NCBI GenBank assembly: GCA_003661975.1
Contig: QMXE01000002.1
Coordinates: 1-51,483 of the forward strand
From: Candidatus Bathyarchaeota archaeon
GTDB taxonomy: Archaea > Thermoproteota > Bathyarchaeia > Bathyarchaeales > DTEX01
Reading direction: 5' to 3'
Length of the DNA: 51,483 nucleotides
This document shows, in pieces, positions 1 to 42,872 of this stretch. Under the pieces are notes generated by a model that saw only the letters and a list, made by a program, of their open reading frames with translations, was not told where the DNA came from and did not search any database. The stretch's first letter is position 1, and each line of letters opens with the position of its first letter. A program made the position numbers and the translations under genes.

Positions 1-376
1 AATACTTCTTCCGAGCGTTTATAGTTTAACACCCATACCGATATCTATGGCTTTTCTTCTAACTTATGGAGGAATAACATTGGTGATTGATGATATCCAA
101 GATTTATCCATGAGGATTAGGAGGAGCCTTAATCTTCTATGGAGAAGAGCCCTCAAATTTAAGAGTAAACTTGAGGCGCTGCACTTATGCAGCTGCATAT
201 CATCAGCTTACATGCTGCTCAGTATGCTTTTACGCTTTTTCATAGACAAATTATGTCTGATTGAGACGGTCATACCAAAGGTATCCATAAAAATTTTCAT
301 TCTGAATCTCTTCGTTACCAGTCTTTGGGGATTAGAGATTATTAAGAGGAGATTCTGGCTTCGTAAGCTCTTATGA

Positions 377-1057
377 CTATAGGAGACCTTTAGGGATCCG
401 ATTTTTCCGCTTTGCATTTTCAGCGGCTACATGAGCAAACCTGATCGGCTCTGGAATTCTATATTTGGCACAATAAAGAACTATCTTGATGGCCGATTCA
501 AGGGAGATCTTATGACCTACACTCACGTATATCGGCCTCTTACTTCTTCCCGAGAAGACCGCCGCTCCAATTACCTCATCCCCATCCACTATGGGCCTCC
601 ACTCATTCTTAACATCCTTTATCTTTCCGCACAATAGATTTTTGGCGACTCCTATTGTAGGAGCGTCTACTATTAGGCCAAAATGCGAGGCGAGGCCGAG
701 ACGTCGCGGATGAGCCCGTCCATGACCATCAATCATGAATACATCAGGTTTCACCTCCAATTTTTGCACCGCTGAAATAGCTGCTGGTAGCTCTCTGAAG
801 GCTAGGAATGTTGGAATGTATGAGAGAGGAGCCTTCTTCACTGCTGTTTTCTCTTCGATGACCCTCATCGTTGCGTAATCCAGAACAACTGCGGCCCCGT
901 ATGATTTCTCATTCGAGTAAGAGACATCTACTCCTGCTATGTATCTTATCTTGCTGGGTAAACAATCATGCATAATAACCATCCTTGATAAAGCCCTCTG
1001 CATCTTCTCAGCCTTCTCCACGGAGAATTTATCCATCAAATTTAGGGGATCTAGCAT
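377..1057 (-). CDS. nfi: Endonuclease V (deoxyinosine 3' endonuclease)
   Basis: 226-aa ORF with IAGVDVSY, FRELP, DGHGRAHPRRLGLASHFG and PTIGVAK motifs characteristic of the endonuclease V family. Confidence 0.85.
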   Translation of the reverse strand: MLDPLNLMDKFSVEKAEKMQRALSRMVIMHDCLPSKIRYIAGVDVSYSNEKSYGAAVVLDYATMRVIEEKTAVKKAPLSYIPTFLAFRELPAAISAVQKLEVKPDVFMIDGHGRAHPRRLGLASHFGLIVDAPTIGVAKNLLCGKIKDVKNEWRPIVDGDEVIGAAVFSGRSKRPIYVSVGHKISLESAIKIVLYCAKYRIPEPIRFAHVAAENAKRKNRIPKGLL

Positions 1058-1088
1058 TGATAAAGCCTCACAGACGATTTCGGGTGAT

Positions 1089-2696
1089 CTAATCGGATAT
1101 CTTGGCGTACACGCCCATGAAGACAGGGCCAGTAATAATGATCTTCTTTTTCCAGTTAGTTATGAATCTACGTGCTATTCCGCTGAGTCCAAGGTTTATA
1201 TCGCTTAGTCTCCTAGCCATTCTCACCCTTATGTTAACAGTTTTAACTCCTGATTTTACGGCTTCCTCTATCTTCGCGGCTACGAGGGAAGCTACTCCAT
1301 CGATATATCGGATGTTCGTGCAGATCCCTCTTTCTCTGGCATCCTTGATCATTTGAATCTCATCCATACCTTTTTTTGGGGCTCCAACGATGTTTCCGTC
1401 ATATACGAAGATGTAATTTTCAGCCGCTGCTCCTAGTAGAGTTGCTCCTTTCTCATTCTCATAAACATAGACCTCCACGCTTTTACCTAAAACTTCGCCC
1501 TTATAAACTAGGAATTGACATGGACCGATCGCGTTCTTATGCCTAAGCGACTCGAAGATTATGCTCTTCATTATCTCCTTACCCCTGTCTGTTACTGGTT
1601 CAACTTCGAATCTAATCGCGTCGGCCAGCTCCTGATCTGTAAGGAGCAATTCGGCATAAAACTGTGGATAAACTAGTCTTCGAACATCGGTCTCATTATA
1701 TAGTATCATTGCGAGACGTTCCACGCCCAAGCCCACATTTAAAACCGGATATTCCAAACCGTATCTTGCCAGCGATATGGGATTGTAAATGCCATAATCA
1801 ACAACTTCTATCCATCTTTTTGAGGATGGATCGTAAATGAAGCCTTCATACTCCATTCCCGGAGCGTAGTATTTAGAGGAGACTTTCTTTCTGATGAAGC
1901 GAAGCTTTATGGGGCCAAAAGGTTCAAGTAGCGCTCTCGTAATCCTTTCCCCTTCTTCAACATTCAATTCCTCATCCATTACGACGCAGCTGGCTGAATG
2001 GTGAACTCGAAGATGCGTGGCGTCTTCTCTCTGCTCTCTTCTGAATCTCACATCAACGGAGAACAATTTCAGTGGTAATTCCCTCTTATGCTGAAGAGAC
2101 TGAAGTGTAAGGAACCATGCACTTGTCATGTGAGACCTTAAAGTTAGCTTTGAAGGTTCTGGTTTAAGCATCGAGAATTCCGGAAAGACTTGTGATGTAA
2201 TGTTCATTGCAAGGTGATCCGGGATCTCAAGTGCTTCTGAAATCTTCTCAATTAAGTCGTCAGGTTCTATTCTTCCCTTCTTATATTCCCTGAAGACCTT
2301 TTTTAGAGCTGAGATCCTTGAATCGGTCAGTTCAACTCCGAGTTTCCTGATCTCTTCGCATTTAGTCTTGCTTAGACCTATATCGGGACGGGGCAGACCG
2401 GCTAAGTAATAGCAGCGATCGAGTATTATCGGAGCTTCAGGCCCGTATTGGCGATATATCTCATTCTCCTCGATTATGATCGGGTTGAAGATTTCGTCGA
2501 AGCCCAAGCTAAGGAATCTCTCTCTAAGCTTCTGTATGAGCTCATATATTGGATGTGGGGATCCACGTCCAGAGAGATCAAGGCTTCTTGATGATCTTGG
2601 AATGAAAATTGAGCTCTCCTTCCAGACCTTCTCAAAGCCTTCTTTCTTAACCCTCTCTAGAATCTCGTCTGGCCTTAGACGAGTCATGCCCTTCAT
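1089..2696 (-). CDS. sepS: O-phosphoserine--tRNA(Cys) ligase (SepRS)
   Basis: 535-aa ORF colinear by eye with methanogen SepRS. Shared blocks: GFDEIFNP..YGPEAP..LDRCYYLAGLPRPDIGLS, KLTLRSHMTSAWFLT, HHSASCVV, LNVGLGVERLAMI, VYPQFY, NIRYIDG. The start may be Met4 (2687). It overlaps the upstream translin-like ORF by 41-50 nt. Confidence 0.9.
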   Translation of the reverse strand: MKGMTRLRPDEILERVKKEGFEKVWKESSIFIPRSSRSLDLSGRGSPHPIYELIQKLRERFLSLGFDEIFNPIIIEENEIYRQYGPEAPIILDRCYYLAGLPRPDIGLSKTKCEEIRKLGVELTDSRISALKKVFREYKKGRIEPDDLIEKISEALEIPDHLAMNITSQVFPEFSMLKPEPSKLTLRSHMTSAWFLTLQSLQHKRELPLKLFSVDVRFRREQREDATHLRVHHSASCVVMDEELNVEEGERITRALLEPFGPIKLRFIRKKVSSKYYAPGMEYEGFIYDPSSKRWIEVVDYGIYNPISLARYGLEYPVLNVGLGVERLAMILYNETDVRRLVYPQFYAELLLTDQELADAIRFEVEPVTDRGKEIMKSIIFESLRHKNAIGPCQFLVYKGEVLGKSVEVYVYENEKGATLLGAAAENYIFVYDGNIVGAPKKGMDEIQMIKDARERGICTNIRYIDGVASLVAAKIEEAVKSGVKTVNIRVRMARRLSDINLGLSGIARRFITNWKKKIIITGPVFMGVYAKISD

Positions 2697-3324
2697 CTCC
2701 GCTCATCTTCTTCATTAATTTCGAGATGCATCGTTCAAGCGATACCCTTCCAGATTCGATCATTATGTCGGCTCTTGTAGCCTCGATCACCCTCCTGGCA
2801 GTATCGCATTTCCTTCTGAGTCCGGGAATTAAGATCTGTATTTCCTCAAGGTCGATTATTCCCTCGAATATAGTCTCCATTAGATCCAGGCATTCTTCAG
2901 CCTCATCAATTCTATCTCTTCTTAAAAATTCAAGCGATCTCCTCCTAAACTCTCCTATGACATCTGCGAGTCCAAGAACATAGGGGATCATCGGGACATT
3001 AATATCCTCAAAGCTTGGTATGGATGAGCCCCTAACTAAATTCAAGAAGATCATGGCCTCTGCATACTCCTGAAATGCCAGATCCACGGAGCTCGTATAG
3101 AATAGAGCGGGATAATTCTCTGCGAGCCTCTTGATCTCCCATAGGATCCCCTTCGCCTCTCGAAGCGTCTCCTCCGCCTTTTCAAGATCGCCTCCATGAG
3201 TCTGAAAGATTGCTTGCTTAGAAAGTCTAGTAACCCTACGCGTCGCCAGCTGAATCTCTTGCCTGTGCTTATCCCTCTCCAATAGTTCTTCACGTATCCT
3301 CTCAAGGATCTCTCTTAGCGACAT
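2647..3324 (-). CDS. Translin-family protein (archaeal translin-like nucleic-acid-binding protein)
   Basis: 225-aa all-helical ORF. The pattern LAFQEYAEA...PYVLGLADVIGEFRRR matches my recollection of the translin/COG2178 family. Confidence 0.65.
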   Translation of the reverse strand: MSLREILERIREELLERDKHRQEIQLATRRVTRLSKQAIFQTHGGDLEKAEETLREAKGILWEIKRLAENYPALFYTSSVDLAFQEYAEAMIFLNLVRGSSIPSFEDINVPMIPYVLGLADVIGEFRRRSLEFLRRDRIDEAEECLDLMETIFEGIIDLEEIQILIPGLRRKCDTARRVIEATRADIMIESGRVSLERCISKLMKKMSGDEGHDSSKARRDSREG

Positions 3325-3437
3325 GAAGTTTCACATCATCAATTATGGATACAATCATAAAAATACCTCTTATATTTAAGAATCTTGATTCATCTATGAA
3401 TGTTGAGGCTGATTCTTCGGAGAGGATTATAGTGAAG

Positions 3438-4802
3438 ATGATGTTTTCAAGGCAAGACGGGGAAGTTCCGTGTGCAATGACGATTGCGGGGTCGGATAGT
3501 AGTGGAGGAGCGGGGGTTGAGGCTGATCTAAAGACATTTTCAGCCTTAGGAGTGTTTGGAACATGCGTAATTACGGCCATAACCGCTCAAAATACTAAAG
3601 GCGTAAAGGAAATCTTCCCAGTTCCGCCAAGGATTGTAAGAGCACAGATCCAAGCCGTCTTGGAGGATATCCCTGTGAAGACCGTGAAGACTGGTATGCT
3701 TTACTCTCGTGAGATTATGAGCATAATCGCTGAGTGCATAGATGAATATGGCATTCGGATGGTTACTGATCCTATCTTTAGGGCTGGAACAGGCAGATCA
3801 TTAATCATTAAGAAGGATATAAACTTCCTAATCGATGTCATTCTGCCTAGATCCGAGATCGTAACGCCAAATATCTTTGAGGCTGAAGTTATAAGCGGCA
3901 TTGAGATAGGAGACTTGGATGATATGAAGGAAGCCGCGCGGAGAATCGCGGATCTTGGAGCTAAATCAGTCATTATAAAAGGCGGTCATCTAAGAGGAGA
4001 TGAGAAGGTATGTGATCTCCTCTATCATGAAGGGGCTTTTAGGATCTTTGAGAAGCCGCGCCTAAAAATTAAACCTCATGGTGGAGGATGCGTATTTTCA
4101 GCTGCAATAGCATCATTTCTAGCGAGGGGAGATGATCTGGAGAATGCCGTAGAGAATGCCGAAAGGTTCATCGAGATGAGCTTCATCGGAGCGTCTAAGA
4201 TCGGATCTGGGAATATGCCAGTAAACCCGATGGCTTGTATATATAATGAGGCTGAAAAGATTAGGATTATGGAGGAAGTAGAGGCGGCTGCGGCGACCAT
4301 CGTGGGAGATCAACGTTTCCTTCCATTCGCCGCTGAAGTTGGCATACAACTTGCCATGGCTTCACCGTATCCTCGTGGAAGAGAGGACGTAGCAGCTATT
4401 GATGGGAGAATAGTTAAGGTTAAGAGCGGATTAAAAGCCGCTGGCCCCGTGAGATTCGGGGCTTCAAGACACATCGCTGATATAATTCTAACAGCGATGA
4501 GACATAATCCAAAGATCCGCGCTGCGATGAACCTTCATTATGATCAGAGGATCATTGAGGCATTTAGGAGGATCGGATGTAAAGTTGCATATTTTGATAG
4601 GAGGCTTGAGCCTGATGAAGTGAGGAGGATGGAGGGTAGATCTCTTCGCTGGGGAGTTGAGGACGTAATTAAAAGAATCGGATATGTTCCAGATGTCATA
4701 TATGATGAGGGCGATGTGGGAAAGGAGCCTATGATAAGGATCTTGGGTAGAAGCATCTTAGAGGTTACCGAAAAGGCCTTGAAGGCCATAGAATCTCTTT
4801 GA
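3438..4802 (+). CDS. thiDN: Bifunctional hydroxymethylpyrimidine/phosphomethylpyrimidine kinase + ThiN-type thiamine-phosphate synthase (ThiDN)
   Basis: The N-terminal region CAMTIAGSDSSGGAGVEADLKTFSALGV..ITAQNT is the ThiD signature. A C-terminal extension of roughly 170 aa fits the archaeal ThiN domain. The ORF is open from 3345, but the Met-Met at 3438 gives a normal ThiD N-terminus and leaves room for divergent promoters. Confidence 0.8.
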   Translation: MMFSRQDGEVPCAMTIAGSDSSGGAGVEADLKTFSALGVFGTCVITAITAQNTKGVKEIFPVPPRIVRAQIQAVLEDIPVKTVKTGMLYSREIMSIIAECIDEYGIRMVTDPIFRAGTGRSLIIKKDINFLIDVILPRSEIVTPNIFEAEVISGIEIGDLDDMKEAARRIADLGAKSVIIKGGHLRGDEKVCDLLYHEGAFRIFEKPRLKIKPHGGGCVFSAAIASFLARGDDLENAVENAERFIEMSFIGASKIGSGNMPVNPMACIYNEAEKIRIMEEVEAAAATIVGDQRFLPFAAEVGIQLAMASPYPRGREDVAAIDGRIVKVKSGLKAAGPVRFGASRHIADIILTAMRHNPKIRAAMNLHYDQRIIEAFRRIGCKVAYFDRRLEPDEVRRMEGRSLRWGVEDVIKRIGYVPDVIYDEGDVGKEPMIRILGRSILEVTEKALKAIESL

Positions 4803-6779: not shown

Positions 6780-7883
6780 ATGATGCCTGAAGAGAGAATA
6801 TTGGCAGTATTTGAGAGAAGATCCATAGATAGAGTTCCATGGAATATTAGGCCTGAATTTTGGTATATTGTCAATAAGGCTAGGGGGACTCTCCCGGAGA
6901 AATATAGAGGAGTAGATATAGTTGATATATGCCGAGAGTGGGGTGCGAGTTGGAGATGCTATTCGGGATACTTCGTTGATAGCTTTGTTAAAGTGACATG
7001 TAATGGAGACTTAAGGTTCATCACGAGGGAAAAAGGAAGGCTCACAATAACTGAGATCGAGACGCCAGCTGGAACGGTAAGAGAGACGCGATTAAGGGAT
7101 GAGGAGGGATTTTCATCAAGAATCATAGAGTATCCCCTTAAGGAAATAAAGGATATTAAACCTATAATTTACATGCTGGAGCATATGCATGTAGAGTTTG
7201 ATCATGAAGTTTACGAGAAGATGAAGCGACGTTTGGGAGGCCATGGGATACTCTCATATTTCTTTCCAAGAACTCCATTTCAGAGGTTAATGATAAATCT
7301 TGCAGGGGTTGAGAGGACGATAAAGCTCGTCTTTAGATATCCCTCCGAGATGGAGGGTTTAATGGAGGAGATAAAGATGGCTAATGATCAATTCTATGAA
7401 GTCATGGCGTCAACGCCAATAAAGATATTCAATTTGGGCGAGAATATCGATGTAAGAATGACTTCTCCTAAGCTATTTGAGAAGTATTGTCTGCCATATT
7501 ATCAGGAAAGGGGAGATTATCTACATAAGCATGGAAAGTTCGTGCATATTCATGTGGATGGTTGGGCCAAGCCTTTGCTACCGCTTTTAAGGGAGACGGG
7601 ACTGGATGGAGTTGAGGCCCTCACAGTTAAGCCTGTAGGCGATATGACGCTCGGCGATATAAAGAGGGCGCTTGGAGATGAAATGATACTGGTAGATGGA
7701 ATACCATTCATTTACTTCCTTCCAGATATAATAAGCCTCGAGAAATTCGATAGATTTGTAAAGAGGATAATATCGATGTTCCCAGATAATCTAGTGTTGG
7801 GAATCTCTGATGAGCTTCCTCCCCCAGCTGACGAGAATAGAGTGAAGAGAGTATCGAGGATAATCGATGAGTTATACAAGTGA
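6780..7883 (+). CDS. Uroporphyrinogen-decarboxylase (URO-D/MtaA-like) family protein
   Basis: 367-aa ORF with an N-terminal ERILAVFERRSIDRVPW and a C-terminal VHIHVDGW...GLDGVEAL pattern typical of URO-D-fold enzymes. Function not assignable. Confidence 0.45.
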   Translation: MMPEERILAVFERRSIDRVPWNIRPEFWYIVNKARGTLPEKYRGVDIVDICREWGASWRCYSGYFVDSFVKVTCNGDLRFITREKGRLTITEIETPAGTVRETRLRDEEGFSSRIIEYPLKEIKDIKPIIYMLEHMHVEFDHEVYEKMKRRLGGHGILSYFFPRTPFQRLMINLAGVERTIKLVFRYPSEMEGLMEEIKMANDQFYEVMASTPIKIFNLGENIDVRMTSPKLFEKYCLPYYQERGDYLHKHGKFVHIHVDGWAKPLLPLLRETGLDGVEALTVKPVGDMTLGDIKRALGDEMILVDGIPFIYFLPDIISLEKFDRFVKRIISMFPDNLVLGISDELPPPADENRVKRVSRIIDELYK

Positions 7884-31950: not shown

Positions 31951-32709
31951 TTATGCCTCCGACTCTAATGATATTCTAGGCTCCTCGTCTCCTATCACGA
32001 AGATATAATCCAATATTGACTGATATATGCTTCCAGCCTCATCCTTTATGCTCACGAGGAATCTCCTTCGCTTCTGACCGGGCCTTTCATCAATTGACGA
32101 GATCAATCCATGCTTCCCAATGTTCTTGCCATCCGTTATTATGGCTGACATCCCCTCCTTCAATGGGAGATGCTCGATTATCTCCTGATCCGGAATGCTT
32201 ATCATAAGCGTATCCAGAGTTTGATATTCATCCTCCACTGGATTCTCCGGGTCCTCAACTCTAATCAGAATGTTCCTTCCATCATGTAGATTAAGCTGGA
32301 TATGGCCGCCCTTGACGGTAGTCTTATTCTCTATTCTGCAGAGCTTGAAGCTCGCCTCCTTCTCATCTATTGGATGCAGAGTTAAGCCCTTCTTGAACGG
32401 CAGAACCCGATAGTTCATCTTTAGTTCAGGAATCGAGACTACATCCATAAGGCCTACGGGATAGCGGTCATCCCTCCTAACCCTACCATCAACCAAGATC
32501 TTACCCTGCGAGATTATCTTTTTGGCTTCCTTCCTTGTCTCAGCGAATCCCAGCATATCCCGAATTATGAGTAGCAACGGTATGCATCGGCTTATTGGAT
32601 GTGGACCTGGCCTAGGCTTAACGGTCCACACGAACTTCTTCCTGTATATGGGCCAGAATGAAGGTGATGCTTCACGCTTCAGATGTAGACTGCCACCCTT
32701 CTTTCCCAT
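31951..32709 (-). CDS. rps4e: 30S ribosomal protein S4e (eS4)
   Basis: MGKKGGSLHLKREASPSFWPI N-terminus, 252 aa, correct operon position. Confidence 0.95.
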   Translation of the reverse strand: MGKKGGSLHLKREASPSFWPIYRKKFVWTVKPRPGPHPISRCIPLLLIIRDMLGFAETRKEAKKIISQGKILVDGRVRRDDRYPVGLMDVVSIPELKMNYRVLPFKKGLTLHPIDEKEASFKLCRIENKTTVKGGHIQLNLHDGRNILIRVEDPENPVEDEYQTLDTLMISIPDQEIIEHLPLKEGMSAIITDGKNIGKHGLISSIDERPGQKRRRFLVSIKDEAGSIYQSILDYIFVIGDEEPRISLESEA

Positions 32710-35076: not shown

Positions 35077-35547
35077 TCAGCTCTTACCCTCCAGTCCGAG
35101 AACTATCTCAACGTGACATAGAGTTTCAAAGCGGGGAGTGGATCTCCCAAACGCCCTGGGAATATACCTCTTAAGCTTTGTTCCGGGATATGCGGATGCA
35201 TGGATGACCCTCAAGTTTTCAGTGTCAAGACCCTTAAAGTTGGCATTCGCCTCTGCGCTCTCCAATATTGCTAGTATCTTCTTCGCAGCCTTAACTGGGT
35301 ATCCCCCCGCAGCGGCCTTCTGTAATCCCCTTCTATGAGGAGTCTTCTTCTTGAATCTAGTGAATGGGACGGCTCTCTTCATCTTTATTACCTGCTCAAG
35401 AAACTCCTTTGCCTCGTCGAGCTTCATCCCTTTTATGGCGGCACATACCTCCCTAGCCTTTTTATGGGATATCCTAAGCTCCCTACCACTCGCCTTTACG
35501 GTCGTATCGGGGTCTAGGCCGACCACGGAGTATCCCCATTTAGGCAA
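35077..35547 (-). CDS. rpl22: 50S ribosomal protein L22 (uL22)
   Basis: VKASGRELRISHKKAREVCAAIKGMKLDEA block. TTG start with GGTGA about 8 nt upstream. First gene of the cluster in this window. Confidence 0.93.
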   Translation of the reverse strand: MPKWGYSVVGLDPDTTVKASGRELRISHKKAREVCAAIKGMKLDEAKEFLEQVIKMKRAVPFTRFKKKTPHRRGLQKAAAGGYPVKAAKKILAILESAEANANFKGLDTENLRVIHASAYPGTKLKRYIPRAFGRSTPRFETLCHVEIVLGLEGKS

Positions 35548-35587
35548 TGAAAGTCACCTTTAACTTCCATTCATCAGATGCATGGTC

Positions 35588-35595
35588 ATTTATAA
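35588..35595 (-). promoter_or_regulatory. TATA-box-like element (TTATAAAT on the minus strand) upstream of rpl22
   Basis: Read directly, 41-48 nt upstream of the rpl22 start in a 90-nt intergenic gap. No experimental support. Confidence 0.3.
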
Positions 35596-35637
35596 GGATT
35601 TATCCTCATTCAAAAATTTTATCTTTACTCCGCTTGG

Positions 35638-36363
35638 CTAGCTGAGTGGATACCTAATCCCAGGAATCCTTCTTAGAGCAAGTAATATTGAGGATCCAGC
35701 TGTAAATGCAAATACAACCGTCAGTATGTCCTCTATGTATGAGTCAGATGCCTCTGCGAGGAAAGCCATGTAAACAGCGCTTTTCGGCAAGCCTAAGATG
35801 ATGTAGAGCCCGGCTGGGATAAGTAGGAATATCCTAGCAAGGGAATCAGTTACACAACCAATAAACGCTATTAATGACGTTGCGAATGAGATTTGACATG
35901 CATCCGCCTCGGGCAGCCTCCTAGAAAATCTAGCAGCAGGGTATATCAGGACTGGTGCTGCGAGAACGTCGAGGATCGTCCATAGAGGGATCTCTCTGCC
36001 GAGTGGATGTATAAAGTAGGCTCCAAGCATAACCGCATATATTAGGAGCAGAGTCTTCCATCTTCCCTTTACGATCAAGCCGCATGCGAGTGCTCCGATC
36101 GGCTCAGCGAATACCCCGAACATCCATAGGCCCGTCGGCTTAATCAATCTGGCGATTATGCTCCCTATGAGCACAGCTAGAAAGCCTGCGTATGGCCCTA
36201 AAATTATTCCCTCCAGAGGCTCCAAGTATATGCTTAGGCTTCTCCAAAGCCCAATTGGGATCAAATATAATATGGAGTGTAGAGCCGCGAACATCCCTAT
36301 CAGAGACGTCATTAATGATGACCTTCTCAATCCATCCAGCCCGCCGAAATATTTGATGCCCAA
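35638..36363 (-). CDS. Polytopic membrane protein (ECF S-component-like topology, family uncertain)
   Basis: 241 aa with about 6 hydrophobic helices. LEPLEGIILGPYAGFLAVLIGS resembles substrate-capture (S) components. Weak call. Confidence 0.35.
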   Translation of the reverse strand: MGIKYFGGLDGLRRSSLMTSLIGMFAALHSILYLIPIGLWRSLSIYLEPLEGIILGPYAGFLAVLIGSIIARLIKPTGLWMFGVFAEPIGALACGLIVKGRWKTLLLIYAVMLGAYFIHPLGREIPLWTILDVLAAPVLIYPAARFSRRLPEADACQISFATSLIAFIGCVTDSLARIFLLIPAGLYIILGLPKSAVYMAFLAEASDSYIEDILTVVFAFTAGSSILLALRRIPGIRYPLS

Positions 36364-36453
36364 CGCCTAATAAGAATTTAAGCGAACAGGCATCCTTAAA
36401 TCGCGAAAAGGTAAGATCTAATCTGAACTGAAGATCAACTTGGGGGAGTCGAT

Positions 36454-37542
36454 TTGAAGTTTTCTGAGTTTGCTGATCTGCCAGTAATAGACGCTCATGC
36501 ACACTTCGGCGAATTCGGAACTTGGAGGCCGAGATTAACCGCTGAAAACCTGCGATCACAGGGCGAATTTATGTTGAGTGTCATGAAGAATGGGAGGTTA
36601 AGCGGGATCAACGTTACTGGCAGGGAAGCTGGATTATATCTTAAGGCCAGATACCCAAGCATGTTCTATGCAGGCGGGTATGTTCCATGGTCTGGGGAGA
36701 CAGAATTGCTGAGGGTTAAGGACTGGAACGAGTACATCAGCAGACTGATCGAGATAGGATTCGATGGGATCGGTGAGATGGGAAATAAGCCGGTCTTGAG
36801 AAGCAAACATAAGCCTCTTGACGGAGACTATTATAGGGGATTCTGGGAGGCTTGCGAGTCTCTCGGAGTTCCAATTCTCTGCCACGTTGCCGATCCAGAG
36901 GAGTTCTGGGATGAGAAATCAGCTCCTGAATGGGCTAAGAGCAGGGGATGGGTATACTACTTGGATGATTATCCAACGAAGGAGGAGCTCTATGCGGAGA
37001 TGGAGAATGTTCTGGATGCGCATCCAAACCTGAAAGTGACGCTGTGCCACTTCTATTTTATATCAGCTGATCTTGAAAGGGCTGAGGAGTTCATGAACAG
37101 ATATGATAATGTAAGTTTGGATTTGACTTTGGGGATTGAACTCATGTATAATATCTCTCGGAGAAGAGATGACTGGAGGGATTTCTTCATAAAGTTTCAG
37201 GACAGAATAATCTTCGGAACTGATATTGCAACGTGGCAGACGCTACAGCAGGCTCTAGATAGGATATGGCTCATAAGGAACTTCCTCGAGTCAGATGAGG
37301 AATTCTACACTCCTGAAACGGCCGATATGCTCCTGACAAGATATGAGGAGCCATTCGTGGGCTTAAAGCTTCCAGAGGGGGCTTTGAGGAGGATTTACTG
37401 CGAAAACTTCAAGAGGCTCTGGGGAGACAGGCCTAGACCATTGAATCTCGAGATGATAATTGATTATCTTAAGGAGAAGGGAGAGAAGGAACTTTTATTG
37501 GCCATAAGATCCGTCGTGGAGGAAAATCAGCCGGACTGTTAG
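36454..37542 (+). CDS. Amidohydrolase-superfamily TIM-barrel metal-dependent hydrolase
   Basis: VIDAHAHFG metal-binding start, then ILCHVADP, LCHFYF and FGTDI blocks. TTG start. Confidence 0.6.
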   Translation: MKFSEFADLPVIDAHAHFGEFGTWRPRLTAENLRSQGEFMLSVMKNGRLSGINVTGREAGLYLKARYPSMFYAGGYVPWSGETELLRVKDWNEYISRLIEIGFDGIGEMGNKPVLRSKHKPLDGDYYRGFWEACESLGVPILCHVADPEEFWDEKSAPEWAKSRGWVYYLDDYPTKEELYAEMENVLDAHPNLKVTLCHFYFISADLERAEEFMNRYDNVSLDLTLGIELMYNISRRRDDWRDFFIKFQDRIIFGTDIATWQTLQQALDRIWLIRNFLESDEEFYTPETADMLLTRYEEPFVGLKLPEGALRRIYCENFKRLWGDRPRPLNLEMIIDYLKEKGEKELLLAIRSVVEENQPDC

Positions 37543-38273
37543 GCCTCTATCCTAAAGAGCCTCATAGAGTTCTCTCCTAAGACGAACTCCAATTGACGCT
37601 CAGTTAAACCCGCAACTCTAACCTTCTCGATCTCGAATGCGGGATGCCCAAACGGCATATCCGAGCCGTATATAACCCTTTCCTCTCCAACCTCATCAGC
37701 AGCCTCCTTTATCTTACTATGCATCGGCATACCCGAAGTCTCAAGAATTATATTCTCATGTTTCCGGGCTACCTCTATGGCGCCATTAATATAGACTATA
37801 TGCCCATGACCCATATGCCCCAGTATTATCTTGACATCTGGGTATCTATCGGCGAGGTTTCCAAAGTGCCAAGGCAGGGACCATGGTGGATGCCCACAAT
37901 GGAAGAGTATTGGGATTCTCCGCTTGGCAGCCTCATCCATTACAGGGTAGATTACAGGCTGATCCGGAAGATAAGAGTCTAATAGGGGATGCATCTTCAA
38001 TCCCCTGAAGCCCCACTCCTCCACTGCCACCCTGATCTTCTCTACTGCTCTATCTCCCTCATACGGATTAACCCAGAGTAGCCCCACTAGCCTATCCGGG
38101 TGCTTCTTCACTGCCTCCAGTGTGATCTCATTCGGGAGGGAGGATACGACGCTCCAAGAGATGCCGTGACGATCCATGATCTCAATCATGCCTTCAGCAT
38201 TCAATTTAACATTGAATAGTGGAAAATCCCCGAGGTGAGTATGGGAGTCGATTATGATCATATGCATCACCAA
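37539..38273 (-). CDS. Amidohydrolase 2 family (TIM-barrel metal-dependent hydrolase)
   Basis: IIDSHTHLG, GLKMHP, ILFHCGHPP, LGHMGHG and YGSDMPFGHP blocks. Confidence 0.75.
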   Translation of the reverse strand: MVMHMIIIDSHTHLGDFPLFNVKLNAEGMIEIMDRHGISWSVVSSLPNEITLEAVKKHPDRLVGLLWVNPYEGDRAVEKIRVAVEEWGFRGLKMHPLLDSYLPDQPVIYPVMDEAAKRRIPILFHCGHPPWSLPWHFGNLADRYPDVKIILGHMGHGHIVYINGAIEVARKHENIILETSGMPMHSKIKEAADEVGEERVIYGSDMPFGHPAFEIEKVRVAGLTERQLEFVLGENSMRLFRIEA

Positions 38274-38274
38274 C

Positions 38275-38805
38275 TCACATAATTACATACCTGATCTTTA
38301 AGGCTTTACGTATCGATGCTAGTAGAGGCACAGTAACTATTATGTCAAGTGCACTTAGCGGGAAGAATGTGATTAGGTCCGTGTAAGCGACTGGGCCGAA
38401 GAGCAGATAATCATAGATGAAGTATCCAAGATTCTTCTCTACAGCGGCTACTATCATAGCGATGACCTCCGATGCAACAGGTCTATTCTTAATTATACCC
38501 CTCAGCTTTCCCAGGAGGAAGCCCATGAAGCTCCGTATGATTATAGTTGCGGGCCACCAAGTTATGAATGCACTGCCCCACAGGGGATTCCATACATCGA
38601 ATAGGGCTGCTCCAACTCCGCAGGCGAACGCTCCGACAATAGGGCCGCAGAGTATAGCCGCAGTGAAGGAGGCTATATCTCCGATATGCCAGACTCCGAG
38701 AGGAGGAGGCATCGGAATCGATATTGAAGTCATTGCATATACAAAGGCCGTCATTACAGCGGTTAAGGCCGTAACCTTCGTTTTAGATCTTTCCTTCATG
38801 GGCAT
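38275..38805 (-). CDS. ECF-transporter S-component-like membrane protein
   Basis: 176 aa with 5-6 TM helices. LTAVMTAFVYAMTSISIPMP...WHIGDIASFTAAILCGPIVGAFACGVGAALFD resembles energy-coupling-factor substrate-binding components. No ECF A/T genes are in the window. Confidence 0.55.
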   Translation of the reverse strand: MPMKERSKTKVTALTAVMTAFVYAMTSISIPMPPPLGVWHIGDIASFTAAILCGPIVGAFACGVGAALFDVWNPLWGSAFITWWPATIIIRSFMGFLLGKLRGIIKNRPVASEVIAMIVAAVEKNLGYFIYDYLLFGPVAYTDLITFFPLSALDIIVTVPLLASIRKALKIRYVIM

Positions 38806-38844: not shown

Positions 38845-38960
38845 CTCCCTTTTAAAGCTTACGCAACAAACCTCCAAGGGATCACACGGACAGAATTAAG
38901 CAAAATATTTATGACTTCAAATCAGCTTTTAGATTGATGTTTATATGCCCTGGCGCGGAG

Positions 38961-38999
38961 AGCCGGAGGTCGTGGGTTCAAATCCCACCGGGTCCGCCA
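38961..38999 (+). tRNA. tRNA-Arg(GCG) 3' half (positions 38-73 plus encoded CCA), located upstream of its 5' half
   Basis: A-GCCGG (38, 39-43), AGGTC variable loop, GTGGG-TTCAAAT-CCCAC T arm, CGGGTCC acceptor 3' strand, G73, CCA. No matching 5' acceptor strand exists upstream. Confidence 0.8.
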
Positions 39000-39008
39000 T
39001 AAATAAGT

Positions 39009-39048
39009 GGACCCGTAGTCTAGTCTGGATTAGGACGTCGGCCTGCGG
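39009..39048 (+). tRNA. tRNA-Arg(GCG) 5' half (positions 1-37), located downstream of its 3' half
   Basis: GGACCCG acceptor strand (a perfect complement of 38989-38995), TA, D arm GTCT-AGTCTGGATTA-GGAC with G18G19, G26, TCGGC anticodon stem strand, and CTGCGG loop with anticodon GCG. No T arm follows. Confidence 0.8.
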
Positions 39049-39307
39049 AGCCGGGGCGATCATCTTCCACTTTTGAATAGGACATCTATATTCTCAAGTG
39101 AAGATGCAGTAATTCTCGCCACCGTTTGCTCTGATCTTCAAGTCTAAATCGTAAATGTGGGCGTCATCATAACGGCAATTCTCCAAAATCTGATGTTATC
39201 TCTTCTATGCATAAGATCACCTCAGAGGAGACTGGAGGATAGAGCCAAGAGAATATGCTTAAAGCATGGAGTCAAATATAGAATTGCAACGTGAATGATT
39301 GGGCTCT

Positions 39308-41080
39308 TTAGGCCTGTAGACTCTTGGCCATTATCTCCTCGTTATTCGGCGTTCTTATGAAGGCTGGAACGTTCCTCTGCTTTGTAGCCTTGTAGGAGAC
39401 GAATAGCCACTCTCCAATATCTAGCTCAGTTGTCCTGTCGAGCAGGTCGTAGCTTAGGCTGAAAGCATCCGCTATCACCATTCTATCATAGAATCTTGGG
39501 AGGACGCTGACGAAGTAGCTATGGAGCTGCTGGAGGGCATTCACGTTCAGGTGAGCCACCCGCTGACTGCATATCCAGCAGTTCGCTCTATACTTCCTCC
39601 CCTGCCTGAGCAATGCCTCAACGGCTATGTTAGACTGCTCGGTGAAGTCCTCTTTCTTAGTCCTGTCAGGTATGAACTCCTGAGCCTCATCTAGAACTGT
39701 GAGGACCGTTCTTCCAACACCCCGCGTCTTCTTCAGCCATAACAGCTGATCTATGAATCTGCTTACGACATATCTTGCATCCTTTGGATCCGGCAGATAA
39801 ACTATATTAACTCCTCTGTATTCTCCGACTGCAACCTTCTCTGCAAGCCATTCTGCATTTCTTATGGCTTCCTCCTCGCCGTCATACTCTTCCTTGTCCA
39901 ATCCCTCCTCGAGTATTCCCATTACCGCCTGAACATCCTTAACCATCCCGGACATTGAATGGACCGATGACAGGAACTCTTTAAGTATCTCTTCCAGTTC
40001 AACTCTTGCCTCTATGTCCCTTCTGACCTCATCAAGTGAAGTTTCATCATCGTATCCCTTTCTTATCAGAAGCCTATTTATCTTGTTTAGTGCTATTGCA
40101 GCCTGCACTGCTCCTCTCCTTCTTCCCCTCGCTATCTCACCGAAGAGATCAAGTAGGAAGCCCATGTTTAATGGTATCTGCCTGAGCGGAGGTGATAATG
40201 ATAGTCTCTGGATCCTACCCATATCTATTAGCCTCTGAATACGCTTCATTATTATATTTCTGTCTATCATCTGCTCTAGCGTCTCAGGTATCGCCTGCGA
40301 ATCCATTACTCGATCTACATCCCCTCCGAAGTTCTCTGTTGAGAATAGACGTGGCTCTAGATCTAATAGGTGAATCAAATATTCCCCTGCGACGTCGAAG
40401 ATGACGATTGATATTCCCTCTATCTTCTCGAGAGCCCTCCTTATGAGGAATGAGCATAGATTAGATTTTCCGCATCCCGTAAAGCCGAATATTCCAGTGT
40501 GATACCTAACCATCTCTGAGATGTTCACCGTTAATGGTAGATCGAATCCTATCAGGTTGCCTATTGCAACTCCATTCTCGACGCATAAGAACTCCTTAAC
40601 CGTCTCCTTTGAGAGTATGTGTGCCTCGCTTCCAACTAGAGGCGTCAAATTAGACCGCTCAAACTTTAATCTTCCATTCTCTATTCTCATTAGGTATCCC
40701 GTTGGGACCGCTATAACATCGATCCAGGTCTCATCGCTCGTCCTCCATCCCCTATCGATCGTCTCCAAGAACTCCCTGCGTATGACCTTCGGGACTGAAA
40801 TGTCCATTCCAAGCATCTGGTAATGCATTGGCCTGACTGCTACAACCTCATAGATAATGAAGGTCTCTCCGCTCTGGGTTGGCCTATGGAATGCTATGAA
40901 GTTCGGCTCATGCAGCCTATCGAGGACGTTAAGGCTGAACCTCGCCTCTGCAACGGCGACTTGACTTGTTAATGTTATCTCGCCCTCCCTTGTCCTCGAT
41001 GTGCGCGTCGTTACTCTGTGGCTTCTTAGGCGAGCCGAGAACTCCCCATCCATCTCATCAAATATTTTGCTTGGCATCAC
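39308..41080 (-). CDS. HerA-like hexameric ATPase/translocase (FtsK-HerA superfamily, DUF87)
   Basis: 590 aa. An N-terminal barrel-like region (FIIYEVVAVRPMHYQ), Walker A GIFGFTGCGKSN, Walker B TVLTVLDEAQEF, and RQGRKYRANCWICSQRVAHLN as in HerA. Its start overlaps the stop of the upstream NurA-like ORF (ATGA). Confidence 0.8.
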   Translation of the reverse strand: MMPSKIFDEMDGEFSARLRSHRVTTRTSRTREGEITLTSQVAVAEARFSLNVLDRLHEPNFIAFHRPTQSGETFIIYEVVAVRPMHYQMLGMDISVPKVIRREFLETIDRGWRTSDETWIDVIAVPTGYLMRIENGRLKFERSNLTPLVGSEAHILSKETVKEFLCVENGVAIGNLIGFDLPLTVNISEMVRYHTGIFGFTGCGKSNLCSFLIRRALEKIEGISIVIFDVAGEYLIHLLDLEPRLFSTENFGGDVDRVMDSQAIPETLEQMIDRNIIMKRIQRLIDMGRIQRLSLSPPLRQIPLNMGFLLDLFGEIARGRRRGAVQAAIALNKINRLLIRKGYDDETSLDEVRRDIEARVELEEILKEFLSSVHSMSGMVKDVQAVMGILEEGLDKEEYDGEEEAIRNAEWLAEKVAVGEYRGVNIVYLPDPKDARYVVSRFIDQLLWLKKTRGVGRTVLTVLDEAQEFIPDRTKKEDFTEQSNIAVEALLRQGRKYRANCWICSQRVAHLNVNALQQLHSYFVSVLPRFYDRMVIADAFSLSYDLLDRTTELDIGEWLFVSYKATKQRNVPAFIRTPNNEEIMAKSLQA

Positions 41081-42285
41081 TTCTCCTCCATCACCGCCCT
41101 TTCCCTTGCTCCCTCAACTTCCCTCCTAATATCCCTAAATCTCCTAGCTATCGTGAATATCTTTTGTCTCCTTGATAGGCCTCCGAGCTCTAGGTCTGCA
41201 ACTCCCCTTAGGAGCCCCTTTATCATCTTAACCTCATTCTTCACTGCCTTATCGGCTAGATAGAGCAGCTGATTATGCCCCATAGCCTCCATGACCTCTG
41301 GATTATCACACTTCAATAGGAGGCGGAGAATAAATGTGTCAAGTGGATTCTCGCCTTCACCCTCCCAATACGGGGATATCTTAACCTTCTTTCTTCCCTC
41401 GATCGCGGTTATCTCAGCATGGAACTTATCATCCACGCTTGGAATGTAAAACCTATCATACAGGAATGTTGGTGATCTAACTCCAAGATCGGATTTGAAT
41501 TCTCTAAGTTGAAAGTATGCCTTAACGAATTGCCTCTCCATCGAGATTAATTGCCTAGCCGCTCTAAGCGGAGCCTTCTCATCTCCCTCCACCAGAGTTG
41601 TGAAGCATGCATCATAGCTTATTGTGCGCCATGGAGCATTGAAGAGATGGGAGTTTACGCTGCTTAGTATAGTTAGGAAGGCTCTGTCATGCCTTAGGTT
41701 TGGGGGCTTCTCATCCTCCGGAATGAGCCCCTCATGCCTAGCGTATGGTATGACCGCCCGTATATAATCCGATGCTGACGTGTCTTTCGCTATTCCGATT
41801 ATTAGGAGCCTACCATCTATGACCTTCTCCCTGAGCATGTGGATGAGCATGACGTTAACTGCGTTTAAATCGAAGACTGTCAGCCATGAATCGTCACCTA
41901 GCATCAATGGATGTTCGTAGGAGCCGAATATTCTATCGACTATCATTAGTGAAGTCTCTTTAACTCTTACCCAGTAATCCTTAACTTGCCCCTTAATCTT
42001 AAGCGTTGGATTCGCATCTTCAGGGTTGAAGTCCTCGGCGAATAATCTCCCATCAGAATCCTCATGCATCTTTAGCAGCTTCTTAAGCATGCTCCTTCCG
42101 GCACGTTCAGATATCCCTAAATCCTCAATCAGCTCCCTAAATGAGCATTCTCCAACCTTCAATAGCCTATGAATGGCGACGAATGGGAGGTATCTTCCCC
42201 GGGGGGGAATGTAACCTTTCCCTGAACCTAAGATGAAAGCCAAGCTGAAGTCCAGATAGCTTGTAGGGCCATGGGAAGTATTCAT
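41077..42285 (-). CDS. NurA-like nuclease, C-terminal portion, with an apparent N-proximal winged-helix insertion
   Basis: IIGIAKDTSASDY, FLYDRFY and GHNQLLYLADKAV resemble the central and C-terminal NurA motifs. Residues about 35-75 (AIHRLLKVGECSFRELIEDLGISERAGRSMLKKLL) look like a wHTH. The reading frame stays open upstream of the listed ATG as far as 42363. Confidence 0.55.
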   Translation of the reverse strand: MNTSHGPTSYLDFSLAFILGSGKGYIPPRGRYLPFVAIHRLLKVGECSFRELIEDLGISERAGRSMLKKLLKMHEDSDGRLFAEDFNPEDANPTLKIKGQVKDYWVRVKETSLMIVDRIFGSYEHPLMLGDDSWLTVFDLNAVNVMLIHMLREKVIDGRLLIIGIAKDTSASDYIRAVIPYARHEGLIPEDEKPPNLRHDRAFLTILSSVNSHLFNAPWRTISYDACFTTLVEGDEKAPLRAARQLISMERQFVKAYFQLREFKSDLGVRSPTFLYDRFYIPSVDDKFHAEITAIEGRKKVKISPYWEGEGENPLDTFILRLLLKCDNPEVMEAMGHNQLLYLADKAVKNEVKMIKGLLRGVADLELGGLSRRQKIFTIARRFRDIRREVEGARERAVMEEK

Positions 42286-42311
42286 CTCAAATAGAACGGA
42301 CTTTTTCCTCT

Positions 42312-42872
42312 TCAGTAAAGGCGGAGATCCCTTGAGACTGGCCCATAAGTACCATGCATCGGCCTATCCAAAAATACGAGTTTAACATCATCCTCGTCAG
42401 CAGCTTTTAGGGCTAAGTATAGCTCTGCCATCGTCATGAGCGAGTATGGTATGCGCTCAGCCGTTCTGGTAAGGTCATATTCGGTTGAGTCGGACTCCTC
42501 AGTGACGTAGTAGAGATCCTCGATCCATAGAGGAACTGACGTTGAGGCCATAAGCCTTCTGTCCCTAACAACCTCATCCAAGTCGAATTCTATTTCATCG
42601 TTGACTGTGAATTTGCATCTGAAGCCCGTGGCGCAGACGTAGAAGAGAAGCATCTCGAGGACCTCATCGTAATCCATTGAGCCGTCTATGCCGACTGCAT
42701 AGTAGTCTCCAGGCTCAAAGAAGGAAGCCTCAGTTCCCGATTTACTGAGGCTTCTAATGAAGGAGGCGAGGCCCTCCCTATCCCTGAGATCATTGATTCT
42801 CCGCGTTAGCAGATTGGCAAGCTCAGATGTTTGCCTCCTCAGTTTCTCGGCTAGAAAACTCATCTTAACCAA
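42312..42872 (-). CDS. NurA-like nuclease, N-terminal portion (DGS catalytic motif)
   Basis: YYAVGIDGSMDY (NurA motif I Asp, codon at 42684-42686), MTMAELYLAL (candidate Glu) and KLVFLDRPM (motif corresponding to LLDGSL). It ends 26 nt before the next ORF, in a different frame. TTG start, with an alternative ATG at 42863. Confidence 0.55.
   Translation of the reverse strand: MVKMSFLAEKLRRQTSELANLLTRRINDLRDREGLASFIRSLSKSGTEASFFEPGDYYAVGIDGSMDYDEVLEMLLFYVCATGFRCKFTVNDEIEFDLDEVVRDRRLMASTSVPLWIEDLYYVTEESDSTEYDLTRTAERIPYSLMTMAELYLALKAADEDDVKLVFLDRPMHGTYGPVSRDLRLY

Follow-up and report, generated by a model that had tools for sequence, protein, structure and literature searches.

On the + strand of the window (the whole stretch of DNA analysed, 51,483 nucleotides), the 3' part of a tRNA sequence lies upstream of its 5' part, and only a short intervening sequence separates the two. 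This raises the question of whether a tRNA gene in such reversed order is in use. All sequences considered were obtained from metagenomes of uncultured organisms, and the answer given here is drawn from sequence comparison. The region 38946-39058 is very probably a functional, single-transcript circularly permuted tRNA-Arg(GCG) gene of a Bathyarchaeia archaeon; a circularly permuted tRNA-Arg(GCG) gene had been proposed in the original prediction. This reading is supported by the covariance score, by 15 other loci and by compensatory changes.

Anatomy and identity of the locus

The elements of the locus are given in window coordinates.

38899-38914, + strand: BRE/TATA-like box AGCAAAATATTTATGA, the sole promoter-like element of the unit, with a putative promoter function
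38946-38960, + strand: leader TGCCCTGGCGCGGAG, read directly
38946-38954, + strand: within the leader, outer-helix (h') 5' strand in a bulge-helix-bulge motif (BHB), pairing with 39050-39058
38955-38958, + strand: leader side of the 4-bp central helix (H), pairs C35-G38955, G34-C38956, U33-G38957 and C32-G38958
38959-38961, + strand: 3-nt bulge with the 3' splice site, predicted cut G38960/A38961 (tRNA position 38)
38961-38996, + strand: tRNA 3' half, positions 38-73, from the ARAGORN call on the rejoined halves and the permuted covariance match; invariant at 16/16 loci
38997-38999, + strand: genome-encoded CCA, invariant across loci next to a variable linker
39000-39008, + strand: linker TAAATAAGT, 9 nt, closing the acceptor stem as a hairpin
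39009-39048, + strand: tRNA 5' half, positions 1-37, from ARAGORN (rejoined) and the permuted covariance match
39047-39049, + strand: 3-nt bulge with the 5' splice site (G36, G37, A39049), predicted cut G37 (39048)/A39049
39049-39058, + strand: trailer AGCCGGGGCG, read directly
39050-39058, + strand: within the trailer, outer-helix (h') 3' strand, covarying with 38946-38954
39071-39074, + strand: TTTT run, possible transcription stop (weak evidence)

The 3' half comprises the 3' strand of the anticodon stem, the variable loop, the T arm, the 3' strand of the acceptor stem and G73. The 5' half contains the 5' strand of the acceptor stem, the D arm (G18 G19, A20), the 5' strand of the anticodon stem and C32-G37 with the anticodon GCG. 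The acceptor stem consists of 7 Watson-Crick pairs, the anticodon stem of 4 Watson-Crick pairs and 1 G-U pair, and the outer helix of 9 bp (7 Watson-Crick and 2 G-U). No canonical intron is carried by the permuted gene. Every element described in the original prediction was recovered base for base, with the same positions and pairings. The absence of a further GGACCCG-type strand, T arm or D arm nearby was likewise confirmed; the sole other GGACCCG in the window is found at 32248 on the minus strand.

When the halves were rejoined, ARAGORN called a tRNA-Arg(gcg) of 79 nt with a complete cloverleaf. Its sequence is identical at 70 of 76 positions to one collinear Bathyarchaeota tRNA-Arg(GCG) (L138) and at 69 of 76 to two others (L158 and L168). 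For the covariance search that had been suggested along with the prediction, a model was trained on 28 collinear Thermoproteota tRNA-Arg(GCG) genes and permuted in silico at 37/38. A single match was obtained in the window, 38961-39048 (84.2 bits, E-value 1.8e-18, full model, 21/21 pairs standard), whereby part of the score is inflated, the training set having been chosen by the anticodon-arm pattern common to the permuted gene. Standard finders were expected to fail at this locus; indeed, both ARAGORN and Rfam (gathering threshold) reported 0 tRNAs in the window. A tRNA-Pro with a 126-nt intron, proposed by ARAGORN inside ORF 36680-36888 when introns were allowed, was discarded as a false positive.

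Folding of 38940-39075, also suggested earlier, gave a z-score of -3.78 against shuffled sequences and a minimum free energy (MFE) of -62.7 kcal/mol, although the MFE structure does not contain the BHB. The pattern at 38961-39048 is far beyond chance, given the rejoined tRNA-Arg(gcg), the 84.2-bit match, the z-score of the fold and the 15 further loci.

Recurrence, conservation and putative transcription signals

Relaxed permuted-tRNA patterns were run on the genome collection and on metagenomes. The matches were mostly ordinary tandem tRNA genes; L003, L005, L186, L187 and L190 were recognized as such by script and ARAGORN and rejected. The permuted arrangement was found at 16 loci including the window, the others being in 3 Bathyarchaeia MAGs (PIYH01000008, JAGGZB010000048 and CAZDRE010000002) and on 12 JGI metagenome contigs; the near-identical contig L183 also bears it. 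The 16 loci split into two groups, A and B, between which neighbouring proteins are ~73-87% identical. In both groups, the neighbours of the permuted locus are an amidohydrolase gene and the ribosomal genes L22/S3. Synteny on the upstream side extends to all lineages, and the gene content directly downstream differs among close relatives. Within the 8-kb loci compared, no synteny of the permuted loci with collinear Bathyarchaeota tRNA-Arg loci was detected, so that no ancestral collinear arrangement could be traced for this site.

In the tRNA halves plus CCA, 78 of 79 columns are invariant, compared to roughly 30% in leader, linker, trailer and flanks. The single variable tRNA position is situated in the D loop (GGATTA or GGAATA). 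The linker occurs as TAAATAAGT, TAGATAAGT, TAATACAAGT, TTCTGCGAT or CCCCACGAT, with a constant length of 9-10 nt and an invariable T at -1.

These values bear on the view that the locus is a non-functional relic, namely the central remnant of a tandem duplication or rearrangement that has decayed, with a working tRNA-Arg(GCG) located elsewhere. In the published origin model, a tRNA gene is duplicated in tandem and its outer parts are then lost (PMC3978253); the trailer has a weak similarity to tRNA positions 38-53, and the search for another tRNA-Arg(GCG) gene covered the MAGs with a single pattern. However, a relic should change as fast as the sequence around it, yet the tRNA columns are almost unchanged between groups in which linker and flanks differ and the flanking proteins have diverged. 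Compensatory changes between leader and trailer would be purposeless in a dead gene, and the promoter-like box is conserved. We consider a relic very unlikely. The inspection of orthologous loci, which had been named as a check on the prediction, revealed invariant halves and a leader-trailer helix with compensatory changes, and no decay. The comparison thus indicates that the permuted arrangement is maintained by purifying selection.

Wherever the upstream sequence of a permuted locus is long enough, in group A as well as in group B, the promoter-like box occurs in the form AGCAAAAKATTTATGA. It closely resembles TTTAAGCAAAGTATTTAC, which is found upstream of ordinary Bathyarchaeota tRNA-Arg genes (L131, L133 and L144). 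The TTTT run noted in the original prediction exists in the window and in some group A loci, but others have TTCT in its place, and group B lacks such a run at equal distance, with T5-T6 runs following ~70 nt downstream.

A leader-trailer pairing with a BHB would equally support a split tRNA, in which each half is transcribed from a promoter of its own and the two are spliced in trans (examples are Nanoarchaeum, Caldivirga, Aeropyrum and Staphylothermus); in A. pernix, split halves that lie next to each other have been described (PMC3218864). Here, however, the halves do not form separate transcription units in any recognizable way: they follow each other on one strand with the 3' half first, and since they are just 9-10 nt apart, there is no room for a second promoter. 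The group B linkers TTCTGCGAT and CCCCACGAT are not promoter-like, and a TATA element in the linker would start transcription within the 5' half. Only one conserved promoter-like box was found, upstream of the leader. Trans-splicing of two transcripts is therefore judged highly unlikely at this locus.

Another role of a tRNA-like structured RNA was also considered, either as a Y-RNA-like or tmRNA-like module or as a recombination or attachment site made of tRNA fragments beside a variable gene region. In E-value mode, Rfam returned weak matches to YrlA (RF02553, 25.4 bits) and tmRNA_permuted (RF04321, 19.2 bits), and the changing gene content downstream would suit such a site. Both scores are below the gathering thresholds of 69 and 47, respectively, and they just reflect the order of T arm, acceptor stem and D arm. 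Moreover, the unit has a complete anticodon arm, the Arg identity bases A20 and C35, and a BHB exactly at 37/38. No integrase was found nearby in the Pfam annotation of L183, and the synteny of the upstream side in all lineages also speaks against such a role. Such an RNA is extremely unlikely.

Register of the BHB motif and proposed processing

In the canonical BHB geometry, a 4-bp helix, which includes the first two anticodon bases, is flanked by a 3-nt bulge on each side (PMC4090602). Leader and trailer of the window form a strict hBHBh' motif of this kind, with two 3-nt bulges and a 4-bp central helix, in which cleavage would join G37 to A38. We infer cleavage at both bulges.

The outer helix was examined in 11 distinct sequences, in which 6 of 10 pairs show changes on both sides (compensatory double changes). 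The covariation score was reached by 0 of 500 shuffles. Of the cells of the outer helix, 96.6% are paired, compared to 35-51% in slid registers, and the helix was predicted de novo by RNAalifold. In the central helix, pairing is kept in 43 of 44 cells over all lineages, with a G-U pair replaced by A-U in group B. The lineage represented by L001 has a C35-A mismatch in the central helix, resulting in a relaxed motif.

The MFE structure of 38940-39075 contains the outer helix, the acceptor stem and the T arm. For the window, the full cloverleaf with BHB has -49.3 kcal/mol, compared to the unconstrained MFE of -62.7 kcal/mol. With the tRNA arms constrained, group A including the window prefers a non-BHB register by ~4 kcal/mol (-53.3 versus -49.3), in which the anticodon stem is lengthened by the final bases of the leader. 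The strict hBHBh' is the MFE structure in L002 only, and thermodynamic folding was rejected as a proof of the BHB. Because the energy model favours the other register in group A, phylogeny was used to decide: the register with cleavage at 37/38 is kept in groups A and B, but the competing one is disrupted in group B. Support for the predicted BHB register comes from phylogeny and not from energy. The canonical hBHBh' joining G37 to A38, as originally claimed, stands with respect to geometry, covariation and conservation of the register, but is not the register preferred by the energy model in group A.

For such a gene, the following route is proposed. A single transcript would begin downstream of the box at 38899-38914 and comprise leader, positions 38-73, CCA, the 9-nt linker, positions 1-37 and trailer. 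The tRNA body would fold into the cloverleaf, with a loop of CCA and linker closing the acceptor stem. Leader and trailer would pair to the outer helix and the leader with C32-C35 to the central helix, which together with the anticodon stem would give the strict hBHBh'. EndA would cut behind the second base of each 3-nt bulge, i.e., after G38960 and after G37. Subsequently, RtcB would ligate G37, bearing a 2',3'-cyclic phosphate, to the 5'-OH of A38, leading to a normal anticodon loop and a circular intermediate. RNase P would cut 5' of G1, at the 3' side of the linker, and 3'-end processing would remove the linker from its 5' side, yielding a linear tRNA. In an alternative order, RNase P would act first and the base-paired halves would be joined likewise, without a circle.

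The chemistry of EndA and RtcB has been described (PMC4090602), and an artificial permuted pre-tRNA is cut by EndA of M. jannaschii (PMC3978253). In Bathyarchaeia, circular intermediates of rRNA processing have been seen (PMC12918454). The model for the proposed mechanism is C. merolae, for which experiments have demonstrated a circular intermediate and subsequent processing of the ends (PMC3978253). Processing of the permuted transcript probably involves EndA, RtcB, RNase P and 3' trimming; for the locus itself, we infer transcription, cleavage, ligation, the circular intermediate and aminoacylation.

Need for the tRNA and relation to known permuted genes

Archaea decode CGU and CGC with a G34 tRNA. 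In 17 window genes, these two codons account for 27 of 323 Arg codons. A collinear tRNA-Arg(GCG) is absent from the 51-kb window according to ARAGORN, Rfam, a motif scan and the permuted covariance model. None was found in the three MAGs with the permuted gene, which are incomplete and were scanned with one anticodon-arm pattern; an equal scan found 58 in other Thermoproteota. A collinear tRNA-Arg(GCG) of the same assembly (ERZ1742239), L180, was rejected as an intact copy, being part of another MAG and correlating with the window in tetranucleotide composition at 0.70, compared to 0.95-0.97 for true relatives. It is fairly probable that a clade of hydrothermal-type Bathyarchaeia depends on the permuted gene as its only tRNA-Arg(GCG), which would be the first archaeal case with a 37/38 junction and the first outside Thermofilum. 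If so, BHB cleavage and circularising ligation would be an essential step in CGU/CGC decoding in these organisms, and the arrangement would have been kept through speciation via compensatory leader-trailer evolution.

Permuted tRNA genes in C. merolae and Thermofilum pendens, which the original prediction had named, are confirmed by the literature. A review from 2014 lists 34 permuted tRNA genes in total, two of which are archaeal; both are from T. pendens and have a T-loop junction at 59/60 (PMC3978253). These two remain the only archaeal cases cited in papers from 2021 and 2025, and no literature linking permuted tRNAs to Bathyarchaeia was found. The locus is the third archaeal case of a permuted tRNA and the first in Bathyarchaeia, an ecologically widespread class. 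The 37/38 junction is new for Archaea and was previously known only from algae.

The T. pendens genes resemble the present one in that they are archaeal, have the 3' part first on one strand behind a single upstream promoter (here, a promoter-like box), encode CCA (PMC3218864) and form a BHB at the termini. Their intervening sequences are also short, with 7 and 1 nt compared to 9-10 nt here. The genes of both hosts were found by computation only and are presumed to be single-copy essential decoders. The T. pendens genes differ in their junction (type IV instead of 37/38) and in carrying a canonical intron, which the present gene does not. Host and isoacceptor are different as well, with Thermofilaceae there and Bathyarchaeia and another isoacceptor here. 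Finally, the T. pendens genes are known from one genome, whereas the present gene occurs with covariation in several species-level lineages.

Permuted tRNA genes of algae were reportedly described by Soma (2007) and Maruyama (2010). Those of type II, with a 37/38 junction, are present in Cyanidioschyzon merolae, Ostreococcus, Micromonas and the Bigelowiella nucleomorph (review PMC3978253). They share with the present gene the junction and a leader-trailer BHB, by which the splicing machinery can join 37 to 38. In contrast, their hosts are eukaryotic and have Sen-type endonucleases, and CCA is not encoded. As there is no sequence relationship to the algal genes, an independent origin of both is likely.

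Ordinary archaeal tRNAs with an intron at 37/38 have the same hBHBh', with a central helix including bases 34 and 35, and are processed by EndA and RtcB (PMC4090602). They are collinear, however, and an internal intron is excised, whereas here the transcript ends would be removed and ligation would circularise the tRNA. Split tRNAs (Nanoarchaeum equitans, Caldivirga maquilingensis, Aeropyrum pernix, Staphylothermus) also have complementary leader and trailer sequences with a BHB, in several cases at 37/38, but their halves are separate transcription units, in contrast to the closely spaced halves with one promoter-like box described here.

The locus reveals no new mechanism, and this kind of gene was already known in Archaea. 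Its arrangement appears to be maintained by selection according to comparative evidence from several species and covariation, which no other archaeal case has. For genome analysis, the consequence is that standard finders miss tRNA-Arg(GCG) in these genomes; their tRNA sets would look incomplete, and inferences on completeness or decoding would be wrong.

Concerning the origin, the model of a duplicated intron-containing gene predicts 37/38 as the commonest junction, which was unseen in Archaea before. Leader and trailer were examined as relics of flanking tRNA copies or of an ancestral intron, i.e., a footprint of tandem duplication. When compared without gaps from an anchored start, the trailer agrees with positions 38-53 at 11/16 sites in L001 and at 7-8/16 in the others. 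With gaps allowed, the score was reached by 190-619 of 5000 shuffles in the three tested trailers and by 336-4134 of 5000 in the leaders. Introns of collinear relatives (12 nt in L147 and 11 nt in L177) were rejected as a source, showing no resemblance to trailer plus leader. The similarity is suggestive at best and a footprint is not claimed. Nevertheless, the diverged lineages with their weak trailer similarity to positions 38-53 could make a natural test case for the tandem-duplication model.

Gene layout and tRNA identity

The two tRNA halves lie in swapped order in the window, and the layout of the original prediction agreed with the sequence as read directly. Features (the box is conserved wherever a locus includes sufficient upstream sequence; all other entries were read directly from the sequence):

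38899-38914, plus strand: promoter-like box AGCAAAAKATTTATGA
38946-38960, plus strand: leader TGCCCTGGCGCGGAG
38961-38996, plus strand: tRNA positions 38-73
38997-38999, plus strand: genomically encoded CCA
39000-39008, plus strand: linker TAAATAAGT
39009-39048, plus strand: tRNA positions 1-37, anticodon GCG
39049-39058, plus strand: trailer AGCCGGGGCG

Joining 39009-39048 to 38961-38999 gave 79 nt, which ARAGORN identified as tRNA-Arg(gcg) with a regular cloverleaf. The rejoined tRNA shares 70/76 identical positions with an ordinary tRNA-Arg(GCG), collinear in layout, from another Bathyarchaeota MAG (L138), and 69/76 with the collinear genes of L158 and L168. The window sequence was searched for a second copy of either tRNA half and none was found near the permuted locus. 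As had been predicted, standard finders were blind to the gene: for the window, ARAGORN reported no tRNA and Rfam no match at gathering thresholds. In E-value mode, the only sub-threshold Rfam matches of the region were YrlA (25.4 bits, threshold 69) and tmRNA_permuted (19.2 bits, threshold 47), both families with the order T arm, acceptor stem, D arm. With introns allowed, ARAGORN also gave a tRNA-Pro(agg) with a 126-nt intron at 36680-36888, which lies inside the amidohydrolase ORF 36454-37542 and is almost certainly a false positive.

For the covariance search proposed with the original prediction, 28 distinct collinear tRNA-Arg(GCG) genes of Thermoproteota, none from permuted loci, were permuted in silico at 37/38 and aligned to build the model R1. 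A search of the whole window on both strands returned a single match, 38961-39048 on the plus strand (84.2 bits, E-value 1.8e-18), whereby the anticodon-arm part of the score is partly built in, because the training genes were fetched by a pattern fixing the anticodon arm. The match spans the full model with 21/21 standard pairs, and the CCA and linker form a 13-nt insertion in the acceptor hairpin.

Distribution, synteny and conservation

GTDB species representatives as well as JGI and ENA metagenomes were scanned by pattern; after a script had filtered the matches for acceptor complementarity, the permuted arrangement was found at 16 loci including the window. Three are in Bathyarchaeota/Bathyarchaeia MAGs (PIYH01000008, JAGGZB010000048, CAZDRE010000002) and twelve on metagenome contigs; a final scan with a relaxed D loop revealed no additional lineages. 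Group A comprises the window, L004, L006, L025, L028 and others, and group B comprises L001, L002, L085 and L114. The permuted gene adjoins the same amidohydrolase gene and L22/S3 ribosomal protein genes in both groups, the neighbouring proteins of which are only ~73-87% identical between groups. The genes downstream of the tRNA differ between loci, even inside group A.

The window sequence recurs almost unchanged on contig NODE_17 (219 kb, run SRR6823441) of ENA assembly ERZ1742239; four SNPs and one indel near 42319 distinguish the two. Compared with L183, a contig near-identical to the window, this indel splits a 595-aa gene (window 41077-42872) into two ORFs (402 and 186 aa). The 595-aa gene had no Pfam or PADLOC match; its neighbour at 39308-41080 encodes a HerA-like DUF87 ATPase (PADLOC HerA, 5e-28). 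Since this pair is found downstream in only some group A loci, the region beside the permuted tRNA is variable. On the other side (region 35077-38805), a minus-strand ribosomal protein cluster (L18 through S3 and L22) terminates at L22, and the S19, L2, L23, L4 and L3 genes are absent after it. Between L22 and the permuted tRNA lie, in this order, a membrane protein weakly similar to ECF-S, two Amidohydro_2 genes and an ECF riboflavin-type S component.

Fourteen complete permuted units were aligned (A2, 129 columns). Of the tRNA and CCA columns, 78/79 are invariant, the lone variable site being in the D loop, whereas only ~30% of the leader, trailer and flank columns are. Linker sequences vary between lineages (TAAATAAGT, TAGATAAGT, TAATACAAGT, TTCTGCGAT, CCCCACGAT) at a constant length of 9-10 nt, with a T always preceding G1. 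A decaying relic would not give this contrast between an invariant tRNA with CCA and variable linker, leader, trailer and flanks.

Register of the bulge-helix-bulge motif and predicted processing

The proposed structure pairs 96.6% of the cells in A2, versus 35-51% when partners were slid by 1-3 columns, and its covariation score was reached by none of 500 shuffles. RNAalifold found the leader-trailer helix unguided. Compensatory changes among related loci, a check named in the original prediction, were present: six of the ten pairs of this helix changed on both sides, e.g. from G-C to A-U at columns 14/115 and from C-G to U-A at both 11/118 and 12/117, while at 8/121 U-G gave way to G-C or U-A. 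The central 4-bp helix, in which C32-C35 pair with leader bases 38955-38958, takes in anticodon bases one and two, with a 3-nt bulge on either side; this geometry fits canonical archaeal splice sites as described (PMC4090602). Across the sequences, 43/44 cells of this helix are paired, with G-U to A-U in group B; in the L001 lineage a C35-A mismatch results in a relaxed motif.

For the window, the BHB finds no support in energy by itself: with the tRNA arms constrained, ViennaRNA gave -49.3 kcal/mol, versus -53.3 kcal/mol for a competing register in which the last leader bases lengthen the anticodon stem. Because the competing register loses 2/4 pairs in both group B sequences and the strict hBHBh' is itself the MFE structure in L002, the BHB was taken as the conserved register. 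For the permuted gene, the analysis establishes its anatomy and tRNA identity as well as its conservation, covariation and register. Its interpretation as a circularly permuted tRNA-Arg(GCG) is supported, and the locus is very probably a functional gene of this kind.

The box AGCAAAAKATTTATGA, at 21-32 nt ahead of the outer helix, is similar to the one that precedes ordinary tRNA-Arg genes of Bathyarchaeota. It is consistent with an archaeal BRE/TATA promoter, and transcription would start just before the leader; the linker, with only 9-10 nt, is too short to hold a second promoter. The TTTT run at 39071-39074 varies among the permuted loci and is not conserved.

By analogy to established pathways, EndA would cleave both bulges, with a 2',3'-cyclic phosphate and a 5'-OH as the resulting ends, and RtcB would ligate G37 to A38 (PMC4090602). 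The ligation would yield a circular RNA of 88 nt, from which RNase P and 3' processing would remove the linker. Algal permuted tRNAs were shown to follow the circular route, which is still unproven in Archaea; an artificial permuted pre-tRNA was cut by M. jannaschii EndA (both PMC3978253). Circular rRNA processing intermediates were seen in Bathyarchaeia (PMC12918454).

Decoding need, known cases and origin

CGU and CGC account for 27/323 Arg codons in 17 window genes. According to the tRNomics work of Marck and Grosjean, archaeal pyrimidine-ending codons are reportedly read by G34 tRNAs and, to our knowledge, A34-to-inosine editing is absent in Archaea; a GCG decoder is therefore required. 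A scan with one anticodon-arm pattern, allowing introns up to 30 nt, found collinear genes with this arm at 58 loci in other Thermoproteota and at none in the three MAGs carrying the permuted gene. This absence is supportive but not conclusive regarding the need for the permuted gene. Assembly ERZ1742239 also contains a collinear copy (L180); it comes from an organism of different composition and was ruled out as the host's own. Two collinear tRNA-Arg(GCG) genes of Thermoproteota MAGs carry very short introns at 37/38 (L147 2396-2443, 12 nt, TTTTTAGAAGAA; L177 807-853, 11 nt, ACATTGTAGGA), which bear no sequence relation to the permuted gene's leader and trailer.

A 2014 review lists 34 permuted tRNA genes, of which two are archaeal (Thermofilum pendens iMet and Tyr, both with junction 59/60), and records the type II junction (37/38) only for algae and a nucleomorph (PMC3978253). 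Later papers cite only the T. pendens pair as archaeal cases, the discoverers of which foresaw further ones, and our literature search found no permuted tRNA reported from Bathyarchaeia or from a MAG survey. The kind of gene and the mechanism class are already known in Archaea. Since the published archaeal cases are from T. pendens only, the present gene is the first case in Bathyarchaeia; among archaeal cases, it is also the first of type II and the first supported by covariation across several species. It shares the encoded CCA and a short intervening sequence with the T. pendens genes, but differs in its junction (37/38 instead of 59/60).

The published origin model assumes a tandem duplication, after which the outer parts were lost (PMC3978253). 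The trailer weakly resembles tRNA positions 38-53 and the leader positions 22-37; a syntenic collinear ancestor was not found among the loci compared. On a 33.6-kb contig of a Bathyarchaeota MAG (CAWGMZ010000016.1; L131, L157), two identical collinear tRNA-Arg(GCG) genes lie on opposite strands. This gene has thus been duplicated within the class, a point that bears on the duplication model.

In a Thermococcus sp. JdFR-02 MAG (L003, MTLP01000002.1, ~6800-6862, minus strand), the 5' part of a tRNA-Gly(TCC) directly follows a tRNA-Phe gene; acceptor strand, D arm and anticodon arm are present, with neither a T arm nor a 3' acceptor strand after them. The related L005 has this gene in full, and the L003 copy could be truncated, split or disrupted by integration.
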